IMG/VR virus record: IMGVR_UViG_2693429700_000006
Length of the DNA stretch: 11,769 nucleotides
Reading direction: 5' to 3' (one strand)
Source: a virus
Taxonomy: Duplodnaviria > Heunggongvirae > Uroviricota > Caudoviricetes
How positions within the stretch are numbered: position 1 is the stretch's first letter; every line of letters begins with the position of its first letter. Position numbers and translations under genes: made by a program. Positions 2,092-7,627 of this stretch are shown one piece after another. Under the pieces are notes generated by a model. It searched no databases and had not been told where the DNA came from. It worked only from the letters and a program-made list of their open reading frames with translations.

Positions 2092-2916
2092 TCAGGCGGT
2101 GAAAGTACCAATAAAGGTTTCTACTTTGCTGTCTTTGAATTTTTCAACAAGCAGATTACGAAATTCGTTAGCCATTTCTTCCTGTACTGCTTCCAGCTGA
2201 ATAATGCGCAGAACCAGTACAGGGCGATCACCAGTGATAATGCTGAGGCGTAATTTAAACGGACGTTCTTTCAGGCCTTCAAACGGAACGCATTTAAACT
2301 CAAATGCTACTGGCATAATGTCTTTAGTTTTCGCTTCGACAGACTCCATCAGAGAGCGTTTGCCGCTGAAGTCATTGTCTTCAAAATCAGCGGTCTGGTT
2401 TGCTTCAATCGTGATTTTACGGACCGCCGCAGCCGCTTTTGTTGCCTGAATGGCGTCACCATTAGCATCAAAGCCCACAAGGTAGTCGGCCCAGTCTTCA
2501 ATCCATTCTGCCAGTGACTTCTGGGAGTTACGCTCGCCGTTAACAGACAACAGGGCAGAGAACGGTGCTGTCTTTTTCAGTTTGAGAGTGGCGGTGTTAT
2601 CTGCGTGACCTGGTTCATCAATAGTACCCAGGTTAAGCACACTGACGGCTCGCATATTATCAGCATCGATAAAGCAGCGGGTGCTTTCATCTGCAAGATC
2701 TTTAGAATAACGGGTAAAGTCATCGATGCTGGCAGTGGAAAGCGCACCACGGAAACGGAAGCGATTTAAATTAAATTTTTCCAGATCATGAATGCGGAAA
2801 TTCTCAGGCAATGCCACAGCATCGGCACCAATCTTACTGATAATTTCATTAACACCCTGAGCAGAAATAAGGGCATGGATTTGATTAATTTCGGTTGCGT
2901 CTAAGTTCTGAGACAT
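2092..2916 (-). CDS. yfdQ: YfdQ-like protein (DUF2303 family), 274 aa
   Basis: Intact 274-aa ORF with GAGGA 5-6 nt upstream of the ATG. Length and position match K-12 CPS-53 YfdQ as recalled. No catalytic motif recognised. Confidence 0.65.
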
Positions 2917-2981
2917 AATAAGTCCTCACTATATAAAGATATTCAGTGATGAGATAAATAATCAGTTAATTAAGAACGATA

Positions 2982-3344
2982 TTAATGACCTGCTGCGCGG
3001 AGTTTTCCGTCAGGCTCACCGGCAAGAGTCAGTAATTGTCCCTGGTCTTCCTGCAGAATAGTCAGGCGACCACCGCGATTGACATACATCGGTGTTTCGG
3101 TGGTGTCTTCTTCGGAAATTTTCCCGCGGTTAGTCGGGCGAACATATGAGAGTTTGTGTTTGATTTTCACACGGTTCTCATCAAATGGTTCGATTTCCAG
3201 GTTGAGCGAGACCTTACCTTTGGTTTTCGTGTTCATCACACCGGAAGCGACTTCACTGAGAACTGCGCCGATTTTGGTTTCAAATACGCCGCCGTCCAGC
3301 TCCCCGATAAATGCCTGCACATCAGTACTGCGTTCGCTAGCCAT
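2982..3344 (-). CDS. yfdP: YfdP-like hypothetical protein, 120 aa from the internal ATG (MASERSTDVQAFIGELDGG...)
   Basis: GAGGAG lies 8 nt upstream of the ATG at 3342..3344, giving 120 aa, the recalled K-12 YfdP length. The frame stays open upstream to 3530 but that extension has no RBS and overlaps structured leader sequence. Confidence 0.55.
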   Translation of the reverse strand: MASERSTDVQAFIGELDGGVFETKIGAVLSEVASGVMNTKTKGKVSLNLEIEPFDENRVKIKHKLSYVRPTNRGKISEEDTTETPMYVNRGGRLTILQEDQGQLLTLAGEPDGKLRAAGH

Positions 3345-3965
3345 TTTGCTGCTCCTCATCATATCGACCCTGCAAGGTCGGTTAGTTTCTCCACAAAACA
3401 GAGAAGAACACCTGCGGTGGCAGCCGCCCGGATGGATTGGGTTATGAGCCCGTCGTCCGGTGATGCTCTTCTCTGTTTTGTAAAAAGAGCGGTACCAGCC
3501 GGAAGCAAGTGTACAAACTGGTACCGCCAAAGCAGTGGCTGTTGTGGTGACCGGTGCTGATCTCCGGCTTGCGGTTATTTCAGACTCTCACGGGCGTTTA
3601 ATTGCCCCGCCGAACAGCTCTTTTCCGCAATAGCTGCAATGTCTTTCGCGCATCAGTCTGCGCATTCACCACAACGCTGAGAGCACTTAGCCAGTTACGG
3701 CACCACACTTTGTCGCGGTTCCATAAATGCCCTCATCGTTGCACCCTGGTCTCTTCCCAGGCGTCAAACCGAATCGCCACGCTGGTTAGGCGTCTTATCA
3801 GCATCATCATTGACTTGCACATTCCGGCTACCTGGTTTGTTTGCTCGAGCAAGGAGTGGATTGTCCCCTTTAACGTCACCAGACCGCTAACGACGCATGT
3901 GCCATACGCCGTGTTACAACCAAATTTTGTTTTAATCTTGCCTGTGTTATGTTTCTTTTAGATAC

Positions 3966-3993
3966 ATTGTGTGTCTCATGGATACATTGTCAA
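3966..3993 (-). promoter_or_regulatory. Candidate leftward early promoter (pL-like): -35 TTGACA (plus 3988..3993), 16-nt spacer, -10 CACAAT (plus 3966..3971), overlapped by two 10-bp direct repeats GATACATTGT (3961..3970 and 3981..3990)
   Basis: Read directly from the minus strand: TTGACAATGTATCcatgagacacACAATGTATC. It sits immediately downstream of the repressor terminator and upstream of the leftward operon. Confidence 0.4.
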
Positions 3994-4020
3994 GTATAAA
4001 AAAACCTGCCGAAGCAGGTT
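3994..4020 (-). terminator. Rho-independent terminator of the repressor gene
   Basis: Minus strand reads AACCTGC-ttcg-GCAGGTT followed by TTTTTTT, starting 13 nt after the repressor TAA stop. Confidence 0.6.
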
Positions 4021-4032
4021 CATAAATATTGA

Positions 4033-4707
4033 TTAGGCCTTTATTGTGTATCTTCTTGGTTTTCCCGAGAAAATCACTGTACCAATTATAGAGCAATTAC
4101 CGTTAATCTTAATGTAAGGCTCAGGCCAGTTTGGGTTTAATGCTTTGAGATAACGCTGTGTTCCATCTTCTATCAATCGCTTGAAGGTGGTTTCGCCTGT
4201 ATCGTGCATCAATGCAATAACGTCGTCACCGTGGCAGGCAGGGACTTCGGGATCAACAAAAATCATGTCTCCAGGGCGGTACTCATCAATCATTGAATCA
4301 CCAATCACCCGCAAGATATAAGTCATTTCGCCACAGGGTACAGGGCAGGGATACGTTTCTGCTGTGCTCAAATCAACCTCAGAATAGCCAACTTCTTTCC
4401 ATGCTCCGGCCTGTACCCATGATATGACAGGGACTAACGTTATTTGTTTGTTAGTGATTGAAACATCAGGTTTTTTTGTGATGTTCGTTGTCTGGTGTTC
4501 TTGATCAAGCCATCCGACAGGCAGGTCGAAACATTTTTCGATGTGCCGTGCCATGCTGTCACCGATATTTTTAGTAGCGCCATCCCCCATAAACCTGCTG
4601 GTCTGGGTTGGCTCGCGATCAATCATGGTGGCAAAGGATGAATTTCCGCCAACACCATCTCTCAGTTTTCTGGCGTTAGACCGCCGGATGTCATGGATTG
4701 TTTTCAT
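4033..4707 (-). CDS. CI-like prophage repressor, LexA/S24 peptidase family (N-terminal HTH, C-terminal autocleavage domain), 224 aa
   Basis: C-terminal S24 signature with catalytic Ser in VIGDSMIDEY and a downstream Lys (TFKRL). Divergent from a Cro-like gene with operator palindromes between them. There is no good SD, consistent with a leaderless pRM-type transcript. Confidence 0.85.
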   Translation of the reverse strand: MKTIHDIRRSNARKLRDGVGGNSSFATMIDREPTQTSRFMGDGATKNIGDSMARHIEKCFDLPVGWLDQEHQTTNITKKPDVSITNKQITLVPVISWVQAGAWKEVGYSEVDLSTAETYPCPVPCGEMTYILRVIGDSMIDEYRPGDMIFVDPEVPACHGDDVIALMHDTGETTFKRLIEDGTQRYLKALNPNWPEPYIKINGNCSIIGTVIFSGKPRRYTIKA

Positions 4708-4723
4708 AACGAAATTAAAACCT

Positions 4724-4742
4724 TTGTACCGATAAGGTACAA
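4724..4742. promoter_or_regulatory. Operator-like palindrome TTGTACC-gataa-GGTACAA in the cI/cro intergenic region; a second TACC-gta-GGTA element lies at 4779..4789
   Basis: Perfect 7-bp inverted arms with a 5-bp spacer. The second site shares the half-sites but with a 3-bp spacer and overlaps the predicted pR start region. Confidence 0.5.
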
Positions 4743-4747
4743 GTATC

Positions 4748-4775
4748 TTGAGGGTTCATTTCAATCATGTAATAT
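4748..4775 (+). promoter_or_regulatory. Candidate pR-like promoter for the cro-like gene: -35 TTGAGG (4748..4753), 16-nt spacer, -10 TAATAT (4770..4775)
   Basis: Read from sequence; flanked by the two operator-like elements. Not unique, alternative hexamers exist. Confidence 0.35.
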
Positions 4776-4797
4776 GTATACCGTAGGTACATATTGT

Positions 4798-4998
4798 ATG
4801 AAAGCGTACTGGGACTCTTTAACCAAAGAACAGCAGGGCGAGTTGGCCGGAAAAGTTGGCTCAACACCTGGCTACTTACGGCTGGTTTTCAATGGTTATA
4901 AAAAAGCCAGTTTTGTGCTGGCTAAAAAACTTGAGCAATGCACGTCAGGTGCAATTACGAAATCTGACTTAAGACCGGATATCTATCCGAAAGATTAA
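4798..4998 (+). CDS. Cro-like HTH regulator (YdaS-like), 66 aa (MKAYWDSLTKEQQGELAGKVGSTPGYLRLVFNGYKK...)
   Basis: Small HTH protein divergent from the repressor, with about 90 bp of operator-containing spacer. C-terminus ...RPDIYP resembles the YdaS/Cro-like family as recalled. The ORF-track start at 4693 would overlap the repressor start and the promoter, so it is rejected. Confidence 0.7.
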   Translation: MKAYWDSLTKEQQGELAGKVGSTPGYLRLVFNGYKKASFVLAKKLEQCTSGAITKSDLRPDIYPKD

Positions 4999-5768: not shown

Positions 5769-5948
5769 TTGCGACAAGTTAACCGCTGGTTCAAAGATCA
5801 CTACGGAGTGCCCGTCAGAGTCATTCGTTGGGAGCCGGAAACACAACGGGTTATCTACCTCCGCGAAGGCTATGAGCATGAGTGCTTCAGCCCGCTCGAA
5901 CAGTTTCGTCGTAAATTCAGGGAAGTAGAGGTCGGTCATGAGCACTAA
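5769..5948 (+). CDS. Small ORF (59 aa, TTG start) hidden below the 60-aa ORF-track cutoff; alternatively the C-terminal half of a frameshifted gene starting at 5590
   Basis: AGGAG at 5755..5759 lies 9 nt before the TTG. The translation looks protein-like ([59 protein letters not shown]). Its stop overlaps the start of the next gene as ATGAGCACTAA. Confidence 0.35.
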
Positions 5949-6276
5949 ATTAACCGGCTATGTATGGGATGGTTGCGCTGCATCAGGCATGAAATTATCC
6001 AGCGTGGCAATTATGGCCCGCCTGGCTGATTTCAGTAATGACGAAGGTGTGTGCTGGCCATCAATTGAAACCATTGCCCGTCAGATTGGCGCGGGGATGA
6101 GTACCGTCAGAACGGCTATCGCACGGCTGGAAGCAGAAGGCTGGTTAACGCGTAAGGCGCGTCGCCAGGGTAACCGCAATGCGTCGAATGTTTATCAGCT
6201 TAACGTTGCGAAGCTTCAGGCAGCGGCATTTTTTCAACTGTCAGATTCTGACCCGTCAAAATTTCTTACCTGCTGA
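5938..6276 (+). CDS. Winged-helix (HTH_36-type) DNA-binding protein resembling the N-terminal domain of phage replication initiators, 112 aa; probably truncated
   Basis: Signature ...WPSIETIARQIGAGMSTVRTAIARLEAEGWL... is typical of the HTH_36 family. Only 112 aa, followed by a 290 bp region with no intact ORF. Confidence 0.6.
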   Translation: MSTKLTGYVWDGCAASGMKLSSVAIMARLADFSNDEGVCWPSIETIARQIGAGMSTVRTAIARLEAEGWLTRKARRQGNRNASNVYQLNVAKLQAAAFFQLSDSDPSKFLTC

Positions 6277-6568: not shown

Positions 6569-7621
6569 ATGAAAAATACTGTAAAAATAAACAGTATTGA
6601 TTTAATCAACGCTGATTGCCTGCATTTTATTCAGTCCCTGCCTGATGATTCCATTGACCTGATTGTTACCGATCCGCCTTACTTCAAGGTGAAACCTAAC
6701 GGTTGGGACAATCAGTGGAAAGGGGACGAAGATTACCTTAAGTGGCTGGACCACTGTCTGGCCCAGTTCTGGCGGGTGTTAAAACCTGCCGGAAGCCTTT
6801 ACCTGTTCTGTGGGCATCGCCTGGCATCTGATATTGAGATCATGATGCGTGAACGTTTCAACGTGCTTAACCATATCATCTGGGCGAAGCCGTCCGGACG
6901 TTGGAATGGGTGTAATAAAGAAAGTCTGCGCGCATATTTTCCTGCCACAGAGCGCGTTCTGTTTGCTGAACATTACCAGGGGCCATATCGCGGCAAAAGT
7001 GACGGCTATGCAGCAAAAGAAAGGGAACTCAAACAGCACATAATGGCACCGCTGATATCGTATTTCAGGGATGCTCGTGCCGAACTGGGTATAACGGCAA
7101 AACAAATTGCCGAAGCCACAGGTAAGAAAAATATGGTTTCCCACTGGTTTGGTGCCAGTCAGTGGCAGTTGCCGAATGAGGCTGACTATCGGAAGTTACA
7201 GGCACTGTTTTCCCGTATAGCGGCAGAGAAGTTTCAGGAACAACAACTGGAACAACCACACCACCAGCTGGTGGCATCTTATGATTCACTGAATCGCAAA
7301 TATTCTGAATTGCTGGATGAGTTTAAATCTCTCCGGCGCTATTTCTCCGTATCAGTCTCCGTGCCTTATACCGATGTCTGGATGCATAAACCCGTTCAGT
7401 TCTACCCGGGTAAACATCCGTGTGAGAAACCGGCGGATATGCTCAGGCAAATAATCAATGCCAGTAGTCGACCTGGTGATCTGGTTGCTGATTTTTTTAT
7501 GGGATCCGGTTCCACAATAAAAGCAGCAATGGCGCTGGGGCGTCGGGCCTTAGGTGTTGAGCTTGAGTCAGAGCGGTTTAACCAGACAGTGAAAGAGATA
7601 AACGAGCTGGTGGGGAAATAA
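6569..7621 (+). CDS. Orphan DNA N6-adenine (or N4-cytosine) methyltransferase, beta class, 350 aa
   Basis: Motif IV DPPY at residues 35..38 (IVTDPPYF) and motif I FxGxG near the C-terminus (DFFMGSGST). This IV-then-I order defines the beta class. No restriction endonuclease gene is adjacent. Confidence 0.85.
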
Positions 7622-7627
7622 TCTGGT

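Follow-up and report, generated by a model that had tools for sequence, protein, structure and literature searches.

In the window, by which we mean the whole stretch of viral DNA that was analysed (11,769 nt), the interval 3345-3560 is the distal part of the untranslated PL (early-left) leader of a lambdoid prophage without N, belonging to the SfV, e14 or ST64B type. The cI (ymfK) terminator lies at 4021-4002. Just beyond it is a PL-type promoter overlapped by two ACAATGTATC operator repeats, and from this promoter the leader runs for about 610 nt without a gene. Read 5' to 3' on the minus strand, the interval holds the end of a tRNA-like module (module X), a GC-rich hairpin (T), a three-way-junction RNA (3WJ), a small hairpin (H3) and the ribosome-binding site of yfdP (Table 1). 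In this prophage yfdP is the first gene of the early-left operon, as judged from the RefSeq annotation of a 99.6% identical locus and a match to PHROG 204. When YfdP proteins were retrieved, there were, among the matches listed, identical E. coli copies only. An earlier note, made from the sequence alone, had described the interval as a structured leader of the leftward operon. That description is borne out by the fold, the conservation, the compensatory changes and the position, the leader of the PL operon being non-coding as well as conserved, and all of the sequence features named in the note were found where it had placed them.

Table 1. Features of the early-left leader in the window
Feature	Position	Strand	Basis or remark
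PL-type promoter (TTGACA, 16 nt, CACAAT)	3966..3993	-	promoter/terminator scan, sequence, Ayreon/SfV/A0 34/86 annotation
H2, second long P1-type hairpin, CAACGAUGAGGGCA...UGCUCUCAGCGUUG	3672..3741	-	regex scan, folds
Module X, tRNA-like cloverleaf	3541..3675	-	fold, covariation
T, GC-rich hairpin, arms GGCGGUACCAG... / ...CUGGUACCGC	3487..3528	-	folds; covarying stems
U tract directly after T (U5 in the window, U5-U7 in homologues)	3482..3486	-	
3WJ, three-way-junction RNA, 103 nt	3385..3487	-	folds, RNAalifold, covariance model R1
P1, 25 bp, contains the 13-bp repeat	3486-3462 with 3412-3388	-	folds
P2	3460-3428	-	folds
P2 tip, GGG-CUCAUAA-CCC (GGGCUCAUAACCC)	3439..3451	-	identical to the tRNA-fMet anticodon stem-loop
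P3	3427-3414	-	length and sequence vary among homologues
H3, small hairpin, CGACC-UUGCAG-GGUCG	3366..3381	-	just upstream of the ribosome-binding site
Shine-Dalgarno GAGGAG (3357-3352) and yfdP CDS (ATG at 3344, 120 aa)	2982..3357	-	RefSeq, PHROG 204

The interval contains a perfect 13-nt inverted repeat at 3395-3407 / 3467-3479, as first noted; by calculation, a perfect 13-mer repeat is expected by chance about 3e-4 times in 216 bp. The repeat extends to 25 nt per arm (3393-3417 / 3457-3481), the arms being 84% complementary as DNA and forming 25 consecutive pairs in minus-strand RNA when G-U pairs are counted. Minus-strand RNA of the segment 3560-3330 folds at -93.4 kcal/mol, versus -67.3 +/- 4.5 kcal/mol for dinucleotide shuffles (z = -5.75), and none of the 200 shuffles was equally stable. 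Conservation was examined by RNAalifold and pair counts in 26 distinct homologous sequences from about 12 enterobacterial genera. The repeat arms are kept in these homologues, with compensatory changes at 8 pairs of the 3WJ, and 98.3% of the 858 cells of the alignment are paired; slid controls gave 36-53%. In percentage paired, compensatory-cell count and covariation score, each of 500 shuffles fell short of the real alignment. P1 consists of 25 continuous pairs in the window and of 19-21 pairs with one or two 1x1 mismatches elsewhere; in the 26-sequence consensus it has 19 pairs and two 1x1 mismatches and is maintained by covariation. The size of the 3WJ ranges from 103 to 131 nt. The invariance of P2 is in part an artefact of retrieval, because the search patterns used to find the homologues lie inside P2. 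The G-U pairs and the covariance model (R1) agree in favouring the minus strand, and R1 scored 112.6 bits on the minus strand versus 38.6 bits on the plus strand.

Several other readings of the repeat were considered and set aside. The earlier note had remarked that the 3' arm ends in a U-run. This run is no more than UUUU within a helix, and in most homologues the 3' arm reads GUUGUGU; hence it is not a terminator tail, and the long inverted repeat was rejected as a terminator for want of a conserved U tail. A further closing helix, P0 (UAGUUU/AAACUA), in which the sequence flanking T on its 5' side would pair with that flanking P1 on its 3' side, was also rejected, as the 3' flank varies without compensation. 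R1 and a regex scan gave one copy of the 3WJ per phage and no further one, on the rightward side or anywhere else, and within the window the P2 loop has no trans target besides the element itself. Rfam 15 gave no family match in the whole window at gathering thresholds and only chance-level matches at E <= 10 in 3200-4150. ARAGORN found no tRNA in the window and Rfam no tRNA or tmRNA match to E <= 10; by these tools the 3WJ is not a tRNA-model cloverleaf.

Upstream of the 3WJ, the two GGTACC hexamers pointed out in the earlier note (3491..3496 and 3520..3525) are confirmed, and they lie inside a perfect 10-nt inverted repeat, 3489-3498 / 3518-3527, which forms the stem of T. The suggestion that the hexamers echo the operator half-site did not hold up. 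The same GGTACC stem occurs beside unrelated operators, as in phiNP, and elsewhere other pairing sequences replace GGTACC. In the window T has a dG of -20.8 kcal/mol, a loop of about 15 nt and a stem of 10-13 bp, followed by UC and U5. Nearly all copies have T; at least seven different stem sequences occur, all of which pair, with dG values of -13 to -33 kcal/mol and with U5-7. T thus has the sequence form of an intrinsic terminator, that is, a GC-rich stem-loop and then a U tract on the transcribed strand, and the LLS version of T was the top terminator-like site in a terminator scan. The simple scan does not flag the window's own T, because a loop of about 15 nt is longer than the scan allows; given the long loop, the presence of only five U residues and the absence of a flag in the scan, termination at the window's T may be weak. 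A rough score of the d'Aubenton-Carafa type was sub-threshold for T and was not relied on. In the fold of read-through RNA, the U tract pairs with GGAGA at the base of P1. We regard T as a terminator-like element for which, on the predicted folds, a role as an attenuator is plausible.

The same letters had been given another meaning, namely that of a boxA like those of nut sites and rrn antiterminators. The string in question, CGCTCTTTTTACAA, is indeed present at 3492-3479 on the minus strand, but its identity as boxA is unsupported. The boxA consensus of gamma-proteobacteria is GYTCTTTAANA (PMC5725501). GYTCTT is kept in 2 of 29 sequence variants and the full consensus is matched by none of the 29; the window's string, GCTCTTTTTAC, has TT where the consensus requires AA, and close relatives differ at this place, SfV having GUCCUUUUU and e14 GCCCUUUUU. 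The boxA-like letters are the 3' shoulder of T plus the U tract, i.e., parts of a covarying hairpin. In a nut-like site, boxA (CGCUCUUUUUACAA) would recruit NusB/NusE and the next hairpin would be a boxB for an N-like factor, or would serve Nus-factor antitermination. The string does resemble rrn boxA, a hairpin does follow it, and its first seven bases, CGCUCUU, equal the boxA of λ, lying as in λ in the PL leader ahead of a hairpin. Unlike in λ, however, the heptamer is unconserved and belongs to a terminator-like stem and tail, and no boxB-type pentaloop hairpin was found at the right spacing. In its place is the 25-bp long-range helix, inside which, in read-through RNA, the tract itself is base-paired. 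Nor was there a second R1 site on the rightward side as a partner, and ORF and family searches found no N-like gene in the window, in agreement with the earlier note. The boxA/nut site was rejected for lack of conservation among the 29 variants. The nut reading is on sequence grounds largely refuted by this absence, an N/boxA-type antiterminator is not plausible for this element, and we give a nut-like function next to no credence.

T and the 3WJ form a cassette that is always found between the cI/PL region and the first early-left gene, whatever that gene may be: a yfdP-like gene, the gene for a 311-aa protein starting MKLPKFRS, xisE in e14, or others. A count over 5426 complete E. coli genomes gave 2775 with the cassette, K-12 among them (in e14, beneath "ymfH"), and the cassette is also found in Shigella, Salmonella, Klebsiella, Citrobacter, Enterobacter and other genera. 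Annotations either miss it or place doubtful ORFs over it, K-12 ymfH being an example. Its two parts are separable. Four variants without T (L016, L091, L119 and L068) carry the 3WJ without a terminator of either form, in L016 and L119 close behind a promoter-like region, and Hafnia phage yong2, found by tblastn on phage records, has neither T nor the 3WJ, so that the 3WJ is dispensable in at least one phage.

What lies immediately upstream of T is related to tRNA. Module X has an acceptor-like stem of 9-10 bp (GUUGUGGUGA/UCACCACAAC). The 5' strand of that stem is followed after 3 nt by a D-arm-like hairpin; central hairpins come next, and a T-arm-like hairpin (about 3569-3551) directly adjoins the 3' strand. 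ARAGORN did not call module X a tRNA. A GUUGUG/CACAAC stem closes the module in 68 of 70 distinct variants, its T-arm-like stems covary, and the module of variant L129 has canonical D and T arms. T is directly downstream of module X; tRNA genes usually have a terminator after them. In yong2 the slot of module X is occupied by a real tRNA-Gly, which is preceded by a P1-like hairpin of 21 bp and which replaces module X, T and the 3WJ between PL and H3. A different kind of processing signal can therefore fill the slot. P1-type hairpins are themselves a recurrent part of these leaders. The one upstream of module X in the window, H2, has a basal stem of about 17 bp with one mismatch, and a regex scan of both strands at 11 loci found one to three such hairpins per leader and confined them to the leaders, stems of 17-22 bp with the P1 arm consensus recurring only there. 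At the other end of the leader, the stem of H3 covaries among homologues (GGCGG/CCGCC, GGCUG/CAGCC, GCGCCU/AGGCGC) with the loop retaining xGxCAG.

These data bear on whether the region might instead be coding, through a 182-aa extension of YfdP, plus-strand ORFs such as 3156-3560 or the 'ymfH' of e14, or might be the decayed relic of a tRNA gene without present function. ORFs do occur on both strands and are annotated in some records, tRNA-derived pieces are plentiful in these leaders, and yong2 does without the element. The 182-aa yfdP frame, which the earlier note had held out as the alternative, is not kept open: in-frame stops occur 1-5 codons before the ATG in roughly half of the homologues. 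Judged from these sequences, the 120-aa start of YfdP is the right one. Furthermore, the substitutions preserve base pairing in the RNA by compensation, G-U pairs being confined to the minus strand, and the persistence of the fold in about 12 genera, and in E. coli in 51% of the genomes, speaks for selection. We consider a coding or relic origin very unlikely.

The tip of P2 is an exact copy of a piece of a known RNA. It sits at the end of a predicted hairpin, and its 13 nt are identical, 13 of 13, to positions 29-41 of E. coli initiator tRNA-fMet. It includes the three G-C pairs that mark the initiator tRNA, U33, the CAU anticodon, A37 and A38; as in an anticodon arm, the loop has 7 nt with U33 and a purine at 37. 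The tRNA-fMet reference sequence was found at 100% identity in 5426 of 5426 genomes, at metZWV and also at metY. The CAU anticodon is retained in 227 of 231 copies of the element.

An RNA of this kind could be a decoy or sponge for a factor that recognises tRNA-fMet, e.g., a PIN toxin of the VapC/MvpT type, and so an anti-defence RNA protecting translation initiation early in infection or induction. VapC/MvpT-type PIN toxins cut tRNA-fMet between A38 and C39. Consistent with a decoy are the match to the anticodon stem-loop with its three initiator G-C pairs, the retention of CAU, the neighbouring modules, which are tRNA-like or are real tRNAs and T-loop hairpins, and the synthesis of the RNA from an immediate-early promoter, PL. 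The VapC proteins of Shigella and Salmonella cleave the tRNA-fMet anticodon stem-loop (PMC4105405), and these two genera are the hosts of two phages that bear the element, SfV and ST64B. Against a decoy is the position of the element downstream of T, which would make it scarcer than such a role requires. In the mimic, mismatches replace the two base pairs that come next below GGG/CCC in the tRNA stem, the CAU loop is missing from the e14 copy, and the search pattern makes the tip look more conserved than it is. We therefore think a decoy function unlikely.

The 3WJ could also act in cis on translation. In such a scheme, the anticodon arm would dock in the 30S P site or pair with an AUGAG start region, holding or blocking the ribosome, or else the pyrimidine-rich 3' arm of an opened P1 would mask the Shine-Dalgarno sequence. 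In most homologues the operon's first start codon follows the element after 11-42 nt (plus H3), the loop sequence (G)CUCAUA complements the UAUGAGC or AUGAGU with which most yfdP-like genes start, and CUUCUC in the P1 3' arm complements GAGGAG. The complementarity, though, is just 4-7 nt and is weak where the first gene is not yfdP-like and in the window (AUGGC), no covariation was seen between the loop and the start region, and about 100 nt separate the loop from the AUG. No bacterial leader is known to us to carry a P-site mimic. Control in cis of this sort seems quite improbable. The thrS operator is the nearest known likeness, as a leader hairpin that reproduces the anticodon stem-loop of a specific tRNA; the E. 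coli thrS operator mimics tRNA-Thr, binds ThrRS and so autoregulates its own gene. Unlike thrS, the 3WJ mimics initiator tRNA, and the genes downstream of it vary and are unrelated to translation. Phages likewise carry tRNAs or tRNA-like RNAs in their early regions.

In the absence of an N-like gene in the window, the 3WJ might be a processive antiterminator of the HK022 put or Bacillus EAR kind, one that binds RNA polymerase, promotes read-through of early-left terminators and replaces N. For N-less lambdoid phages a put-like mechanism has been no more than guessed at (PMC12315714). HK022 is likewise a lambdoid phage without N, and its putL and putR sites are, like the 3WJ, structured RNAs of the early leaders that act in cis. 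Further in keeping with such a role, the element is independent of the gene downstream, in at least two variants (L016 and L119) it follows the promoter closely, as putL does, and a terminator-like hairpin, annotated in Ayreon, follows yfdQ. The put RNA measures about 70 nt, comprises two local stem-loops and a triplex, and is present in one copy per early operon (PMC9378689). The 3WJ, at 103-131 nt, has no architectural likeness to it. The 25-bp long-range helix that closes the 3WJ would fold late, unlike put's local hairpins, and the single copy per phage leaves the rightward side without one. Homology to put was rejected because blastn-short found no similarity of the 3WJ to put and R1 no match in HK022. 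Moreover, the strongest terminator, T, is upstream of the 3WJ, which therefore cannot act on it, and the LLS early-left operon has no further strong terminator. Two promoter-proximal segments of the leaders with put-like bases were also examined. A module of SfV, e14 and ST64B ('modA') contains CGAAC(A)GGC and GGAUGA, which are found in that order in putL and putR too, but it cannot form the put architecture (A-AA-B-A'-...-B'-stem II). A hairpin in the window, ACGGCGUAUGGCACAUGCGUCGU, shares CGGCG/CGUCG with putL stem I, but a Klebsiella homologue keeps the hairpin by compensation while losing the putL-like bases, and there is no stem II. We take both resemblances, with low confidence, to be coincidental. 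That the 3WJ is an antiterminator is improbable in our judgement.

The reading that we prefer, with a probability of about 0.4, is that T attenuates transcription from PL, that read-through RNA folds the 3WJ, and that RNase III cuts P1, freeing the tRNA-mimic domain and parting the leader from the yfdP mRNA. T would be a leaky intrinsic terminator behind a tRNA-like RNA, and most PL transcripts would end there. Those that read through would fold the 3WJ, the 25-bp basal helix of which would also absorb the U tract. E. coli RNase III cleaves regular double-stranded RNA of about 20 bp or more. P1 has the length of such a substrate (about two turns, at least 20 bp of regular double-stranded RNA) and is predicted to be one; as more than two turns of nearly perfect double-stranded RNA, it would be cut by RNase III. 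Cleavage would free the apical domain, with its mimic of the initiator-tRNA anticodon arm, as a small RNA and would part the long structured leader from the yfdP-yfdQ-yfdR mRNA, leaving the latter with H3 near its 5' end and its Shine-Dalgarno sequence free. By termination at T and cleavage of P1, the cassette would set the level and the fate of the early-left mRNA.

Working models for this scheme are the host metY-rimP-nusA-infB operon and the RNase III hairpin of the λ N leader. The leader of the metY operon is built alike, with a promoter, a tRNA (here tRNA-like), one or more Rho-independent terminators as attenuator, a long hairpin and then protein genes. The metY hairpin is cut by RNase III, whereby the tRNA is freed and mRNA decay begins; Regnier and Grunberg-Manago are said to have found in 1989 that RNase III cleavage in the metY-nusA leader does both. 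Initiator tRNA figures in the two systems, metY being a gene for tRNA-fMet and the 3WJ copying the anticodon arm of that tRNA. There is no sequence similarity between the metY-rimP leader and the 3WJ leader, so the parallel is one of architecture only. Unlike metY, module X is not a functional tRNA by ARAGORN or Rfam, and the long hairpin here is a three-way junction bearing a tRNA mimic, whose cleavage is a prediction. In λ, an RNase III hairpin lies between nutL and the start of N. It resembles the 3WJ in being about 100 nt long and in immediately preceding the ribosome-binding site with which the first PL gene is translated. Unlike this phage, λ has nutL (boxA and boxB) and N, and the two leaders show no sequence similarity. 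The λ N-leader hairpin is not known to have a tRNA-like tip.

An RNase III site by itself would leave the exact match of the P2 tip to the anticodon arm of initiator tRNA unexplained. It is conceivable, if rather doubtful, that the leaders are arrays of tRNA-mimicking modules (the cloverleaf-like module, T-loop hairpins and the 3WJ) and that the excised 3WJ acts by mimicry, as a decoy for nucleases such as VapC-type toxins or for other factors directed at tRNA-fMet, or as a P-site mimic governing initiation on early-left mRNA. The prophage sRNAs AgvB, AsxR and Pas are encoded in the late region. No published description of the 3WJ RNA was found in the literature searched. For N-less phages, the control of early-left expression now has concrete, testable parts, namely a terminator in the leader, a long helix of the RNase III-substrate kind and a defined structured RNA. 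The presence of an initiator-tRNA arm beside tRNA-like modules points to mimicry in phage early transcripts, with a possible bearing on the control of translation or on defence and counter-defence around tRNA-targeting toxins. If the reading of the leaders as mimicry arrays is true, they would constitute a novel class of phage RNA that half of all E. coli genomes carry.

The lambdoid prophage in the window belongs to the SfV / e14 / ST64B / mEp460 type and is defective. Over positions 2900-4800 it shares 99.6% identity with an E. coli A0 34/86 prophage, in which ymfK (a cI-like repressor of the LexA family), ymfT (cro-like), yfdP and yfdQ are annotated, and 96-98% with phages Ayreon, 2H10, cdtI, SfV and SfIV and the Stx2c phages. 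The rightward side, with cro, CII-like and truncated O-like genes, a methylase and lysis genes, indicates that the prophage is degraded; the methylase and lysis block directly follows the O-like fragment, and the absence of the replication, nin and Q regions makes the prophage defective. A strong terminator-like site between the methylase and holin genes coincides in part with the beginning of the longest ORF for the holin. ST64B, phiNP, LLS, Eeyore, SfV, e14, a Klebsiella phage and Mixta prophages share the same leftward layout of a repressor, a gene-free gap of 160-1000 nt and an early-left gene in first place, and they carry unrelated repressors and operators. Directly after the yfdQ stop lies a hairpin with a poor U tail. 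The Ayreon annotation has it as a terminator, and it may attenuate the early-left operon from within.

Features of the prophage and its early-left (PL) leader, with T-loop hairpins of two related leaders; positions are those of the window unless a phage is named
Feature	Position	Strand	Remarks
cI	4707-4033	minus	
cI terminator	4021-4002	minus	
PL-type promoter	3993-3966	minus	two ACAATGTATC operator repeats
Leader	PL to yfdP	minus	~610 nt, no credible gene
Second P1-like hairpin	3741-3672	minus	arms CAACGAUGAGGGCA / UGCUCUCAGCGUUG
X	3675-3541	minus	135-nt tRNA-like cloverleaf (predicted fold), just 5' of T
T	3528-3487	minus	hairpin GGCGGUACCAG...CUGGUACCGC, -20.8 kcal/mol
U tract after T	3486-3482	minus	UC + U5 follow T
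3WJ	3487-3385	minus	fold
P1	3486-3462 with 3412-3388	minus	contains the 13-bp repeat
P2	3460-3428	minus	irregular hairpin
P3	3427-3414	minus	short hairpin
H3	3381-3366	minus	followed by GAGGAG and the yfdP ATG
yfdP	ATG 3344	minus	then yfdQ, yfdR, further genes
Post-yfdQ hairpin	2048-2087	minus	AAAUGCCCCUGCGGGGGCAUUU
O-like replication protein fragment	5938-6276	plus	112 aa
DNA methylase, holin, DUF1327, lysozyme, Rz	6569-9594	plus	
Terminator-like site	7628-7644	plus	GGCCACGUCAAGUGGCC + UUUUUAUUU
T-loop hairpins, Klebsiella phage Kp4866-6	2893-2909, 2836-2852	minus	
T-loop hairpin, phiNP	2813-2829	minus	

The leader ahead of yfdP contains RNA folds that are under selection, among them a terminator-like GC hairpin (T) and a 103-nt three-way-junction RNA (3WJ) with helices P1, P2 and P3. 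The earlier note had described a structured leader here with a perfect 13-bp inverted repeat, and all of its sequence strings lie exactly where it placed them. The repeat is real and longer than reported, with arms of 25 nt that form 25 consecutive pairs in the minus-strand RNA when G-U pairs are counted; the U tract pairs with GGAGA at the base of P1. Folding of 3560-3330 far exceeded that of shuffled versions (z = -5.75). In distant blastn searches of phage records, the 3WJ alone was found at 83-85% identity in ST64B, 118970_sal3, F1055, the Klebsiella phage and Citrobacter phiNP. A pattern derived from P2 gave 26 further genuine copies, from Citrobacter, Enterobacter, Kosakonia, Mixta, Atlantibacter, Buttiauxella, Leclercia, Pseudescherichia, Pseudocitrobacter, Erwinia and Klebsiella, along with two chance matches in unrelated GC-rich DNA. 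The same kind of pattern was present in at least 120 viral contigs, and all 80 of those searched with the model had one full-length 3WJ each. Because the search patterns sit inside P2, the near-invariance of P2 among these copies is partly by construction. The T+3WJ cassette was found, mostly unannotated, in 2775 of 5426 complete E. coli genomes, in up to five copies per genome.

The repeat arms are conserved as a fold maintained by compensatory changes. RNAalifold gave the same Y-shaped fold for 26 distinct 3WJ sequences, and 98.3% of the alignment cells were paired, versus 93.2 +/- 0.5% in shuffled and 36-53% in slid controls. Eight pairs had changed on both sides; for example, one P1 pair is G-C in 14 sequences and C-G in 12, three P1 pairs change from A-U to G-C, and P2 shows G-C, A-U and G-U. 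None of 500 shuffles came up to the alignment in percentage of paired cells, number of compensatory cells or covariation score. R1, a covariance model built from the 26-sequence alignment, scored the window at 112.6 bits on its minus strand versus 38.6 on its plus strand, and this difference, together with the G-U pairs, assigns the 3WJ to the minus strand. R1 matched neither the rightward side of the loci nor HK022. That the 3WJ is a put- or EAR-like antiterminator is possible but finds no positive support: R1 found exactly one 3WJ per locus, there is no similarity to put, and T sits upstream of the 3WJ. The substitution pattern in the 3WJ region fits RNA pairing, and the 182-aa yfdP frame considered in the earlier note, open in the window, in about half of the homologues ends at a stop that precedes the ATG by 1-5 codons; given this pattern and these stops, the plus-strand ORFs and the e14 'ymfH' are doubtful as genes. 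In K-12 e14 the annotated ymfH (2002-2313, minus) spans T and the 3WJ (R1 match 2031-2133, 88.6 bits) and is probably no protein gene.

T was found in nearly all 3WJ copies. Its stem takes at least seven sequences, all of which pair (GGCGGUACC, GUCGGCGUC, GGCGGUUAUCC, UGCCCAYC, GCGGCGUC, GCGGCAUC and CUGGCGG...CCGCCAG), with a loop of 3 to ~45 nt and a dG of -13 to -33 kcal/mol; 5-7 consecutive U follow, beginning 0-2 nt past the stem. In phage LLS, T was the best terminator-like site on its strand in a terminator scan; the window T, with a loop longer than the scan allows and a short U run, may be leaky. The segment previously read as boxA (3492-3479) consists of the last T stem bases, the U tract and the first P1 bases. 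The boxA consensus GYTCTTTAANA (PMC5725501) was matched by 0 of 29 tract variants and GYTCTT was kept by two, including the abundant E. coli type, which is the window's own; N/boxA antitermination was therefore rejected. The window indeed has no N-like gene, as had been noted. The two GGTACC hexamers, earlier taken to echo an operator half-site, form the centre of a second perfect inverted repeat of 10 nt, and an operator relationship was rejected because in phiNP this stem accompanies unrelated operators, and in other phages different stems take its place. Long-loop versions of T (ST64B, ~2610-2680, minus; loci L012, L020, L023 and L032) hold a Shine-Dalgarno-like GGAGGAAG, itself paired with CUUCC, with an AUG or GUG ~8 nt on. 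The resulting short ORF (MFCRGTALFT* in L023) crosses the T 3' arm and U tract and may be a leader peptide through which termination is coupled to translation; the window T lacks it, and its start is not kept in the Klebsiella phage. At least two loci (L016, Mixta tenebrionis, 1409-1735; L119) have the 3WJ close behind a promoter-like region, with neither T nor a tRNA-like module, from which we infer that the 3WJ works without them.

The module upstream of T, X, has an acceptor-like closing stem of 9-10 bp (GUUGUGGUGA/UCACCACAAC), a D-arm-like hairpin 3 nt past the 5' strand, central hairpins, and a T-arm-like hairpin abutting the 3' strand. The closing stem was in the minimum-energy fold of 68 of 70 distinct variants, and the stems at the T-arm position covary (GGUGG/CCACC, CCGGG/CCCGG, GCCGG/CCGGU, GCGGC/GCCGC). 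Neither ARAGORN nor Rfam called X a tRNA. In one IMG/VR contig (L129, minus ~4371-4387 and the surrounding 130 nt) both the D arm, GUAGCUCAAUUGGUUAGAG, and the T arm, CCGGG-UUCGAGU-CCCGG, of X are canonical; this X also contains a large insert and is likewise not called. In Hafnia phage yong2, ARAGORN found in the PL leader (2370-2443, plus) a tRNA-Gly(CCC) whose position 33 is, unusually, G; the order there is a 21-bp P1-like hairpin (2292-2378), the tRNA, GUGUGGAGUAAAU, H3 and the yfdP ribosome-binding site, GUGUGGAGUAAAU being the only remnant of T and the 3WJ. Other leaders have T-loop hairpins, a 5-6 bp stem with UUCGAUU or UUCAAUU, in the apical domain of a long hairpin; Kp4866-6 has two close together. 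With X tRNA-like, a real tRNA in yong2 and T-loop hairpins elsewhere, T occupies the site of a terminator behind a tRNA gene. Each leader has one to three long P1-like hairpins (arms CAAC-nn-GAGAGCA ... UGCUCUC-nn-GUUG, basal stems 17-22 bp), and the rest of the examined loci has none; in some leaders these hairpins are preceded by a GC hairpin and U5 of their own. The 3' arm of the second one in the window overlaps the 5' strand of X, so the two may compete. A promoter-proximal element, ACAGGCAGGACGCCCACGAAGUAGCC...GGAUGAUUCG, conserved in the first ~70 nt after PL in SfV, e14, ST64B, phiNP and Eeyore and absent from the window, shares CGAAC(A)GGC and GGAUGA with HK022 putL and putR and misfits put architecture.

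The P2 tip, GGG-CUCAUAA-CCC (3451-3439), matches positions 29-41 of the E. coli initiator tRNA at all 13 nt: three consecutive G-C pairs, which set initiator tRNA apart, and a loop with U33, the anticodon CAU, A37 and A38. Verification of the tRNA sequence gave 100% identity across all 5426 genomes and at both the metZWV cluster and metY, the latter annotated 'tRNA-initiator Met(CAU)'. By our own estimate, a 13-mer match exactly on a hairpin tip is unlikely by chance (~1e-4 to 1e-5). Among 231 copies, in counts subject to the bias of the P2-pattern search, this tip occurs in 199 and CUCAUUC or CUCAUUA in 26, while three are of the e14 type, UUAAUAA, in which the CAU loop is lost. The whole 3WJ drew no tRNA call from ARAGORN or Rfam.

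We favor a mechanism in which part of PL transcription would stop at T, behind the tRNA-like RNA, and read-through RNA would fold into the 3WJ. P1, a nearly perfect duplex of 25 bp, would be an RNase III substrate, and its cleavage would release the tRNA-mimic domain and detach the leader from the yfdP mRNA. Precedents are the metY-rimP-nusA-infB leader, although the window leader has no sequence similarity to the metY leader, and the RNase III hairpin of the λ N leader. Attenuation at T with RNase III cleavage leaves the initiator anticodon arm unexplained, however. One reading of that arm is that the 3WJ is a decoy for factors targeting tRNA-fMet, for example VapC of Shigella and Salmonella, which cuts exactly the stem-loop copied in the P2 tip, between A38 and C39 (PMC4105405); another is a P-site or start-codon interaction in cis.

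No Rfam family matched the leader element, and no description of T+3WJ was found in the literature searched, where the sole relevant remark is a guess that phage LLS might use a put-like mechanism (PMC12315714). In sum, we place T+3WJ with known kinds of element, phage cassettes for leader processing and attenuation on the one hand and tRNA mimicry on the other, with a real chance that its tRNA-mimic aspect is something new.
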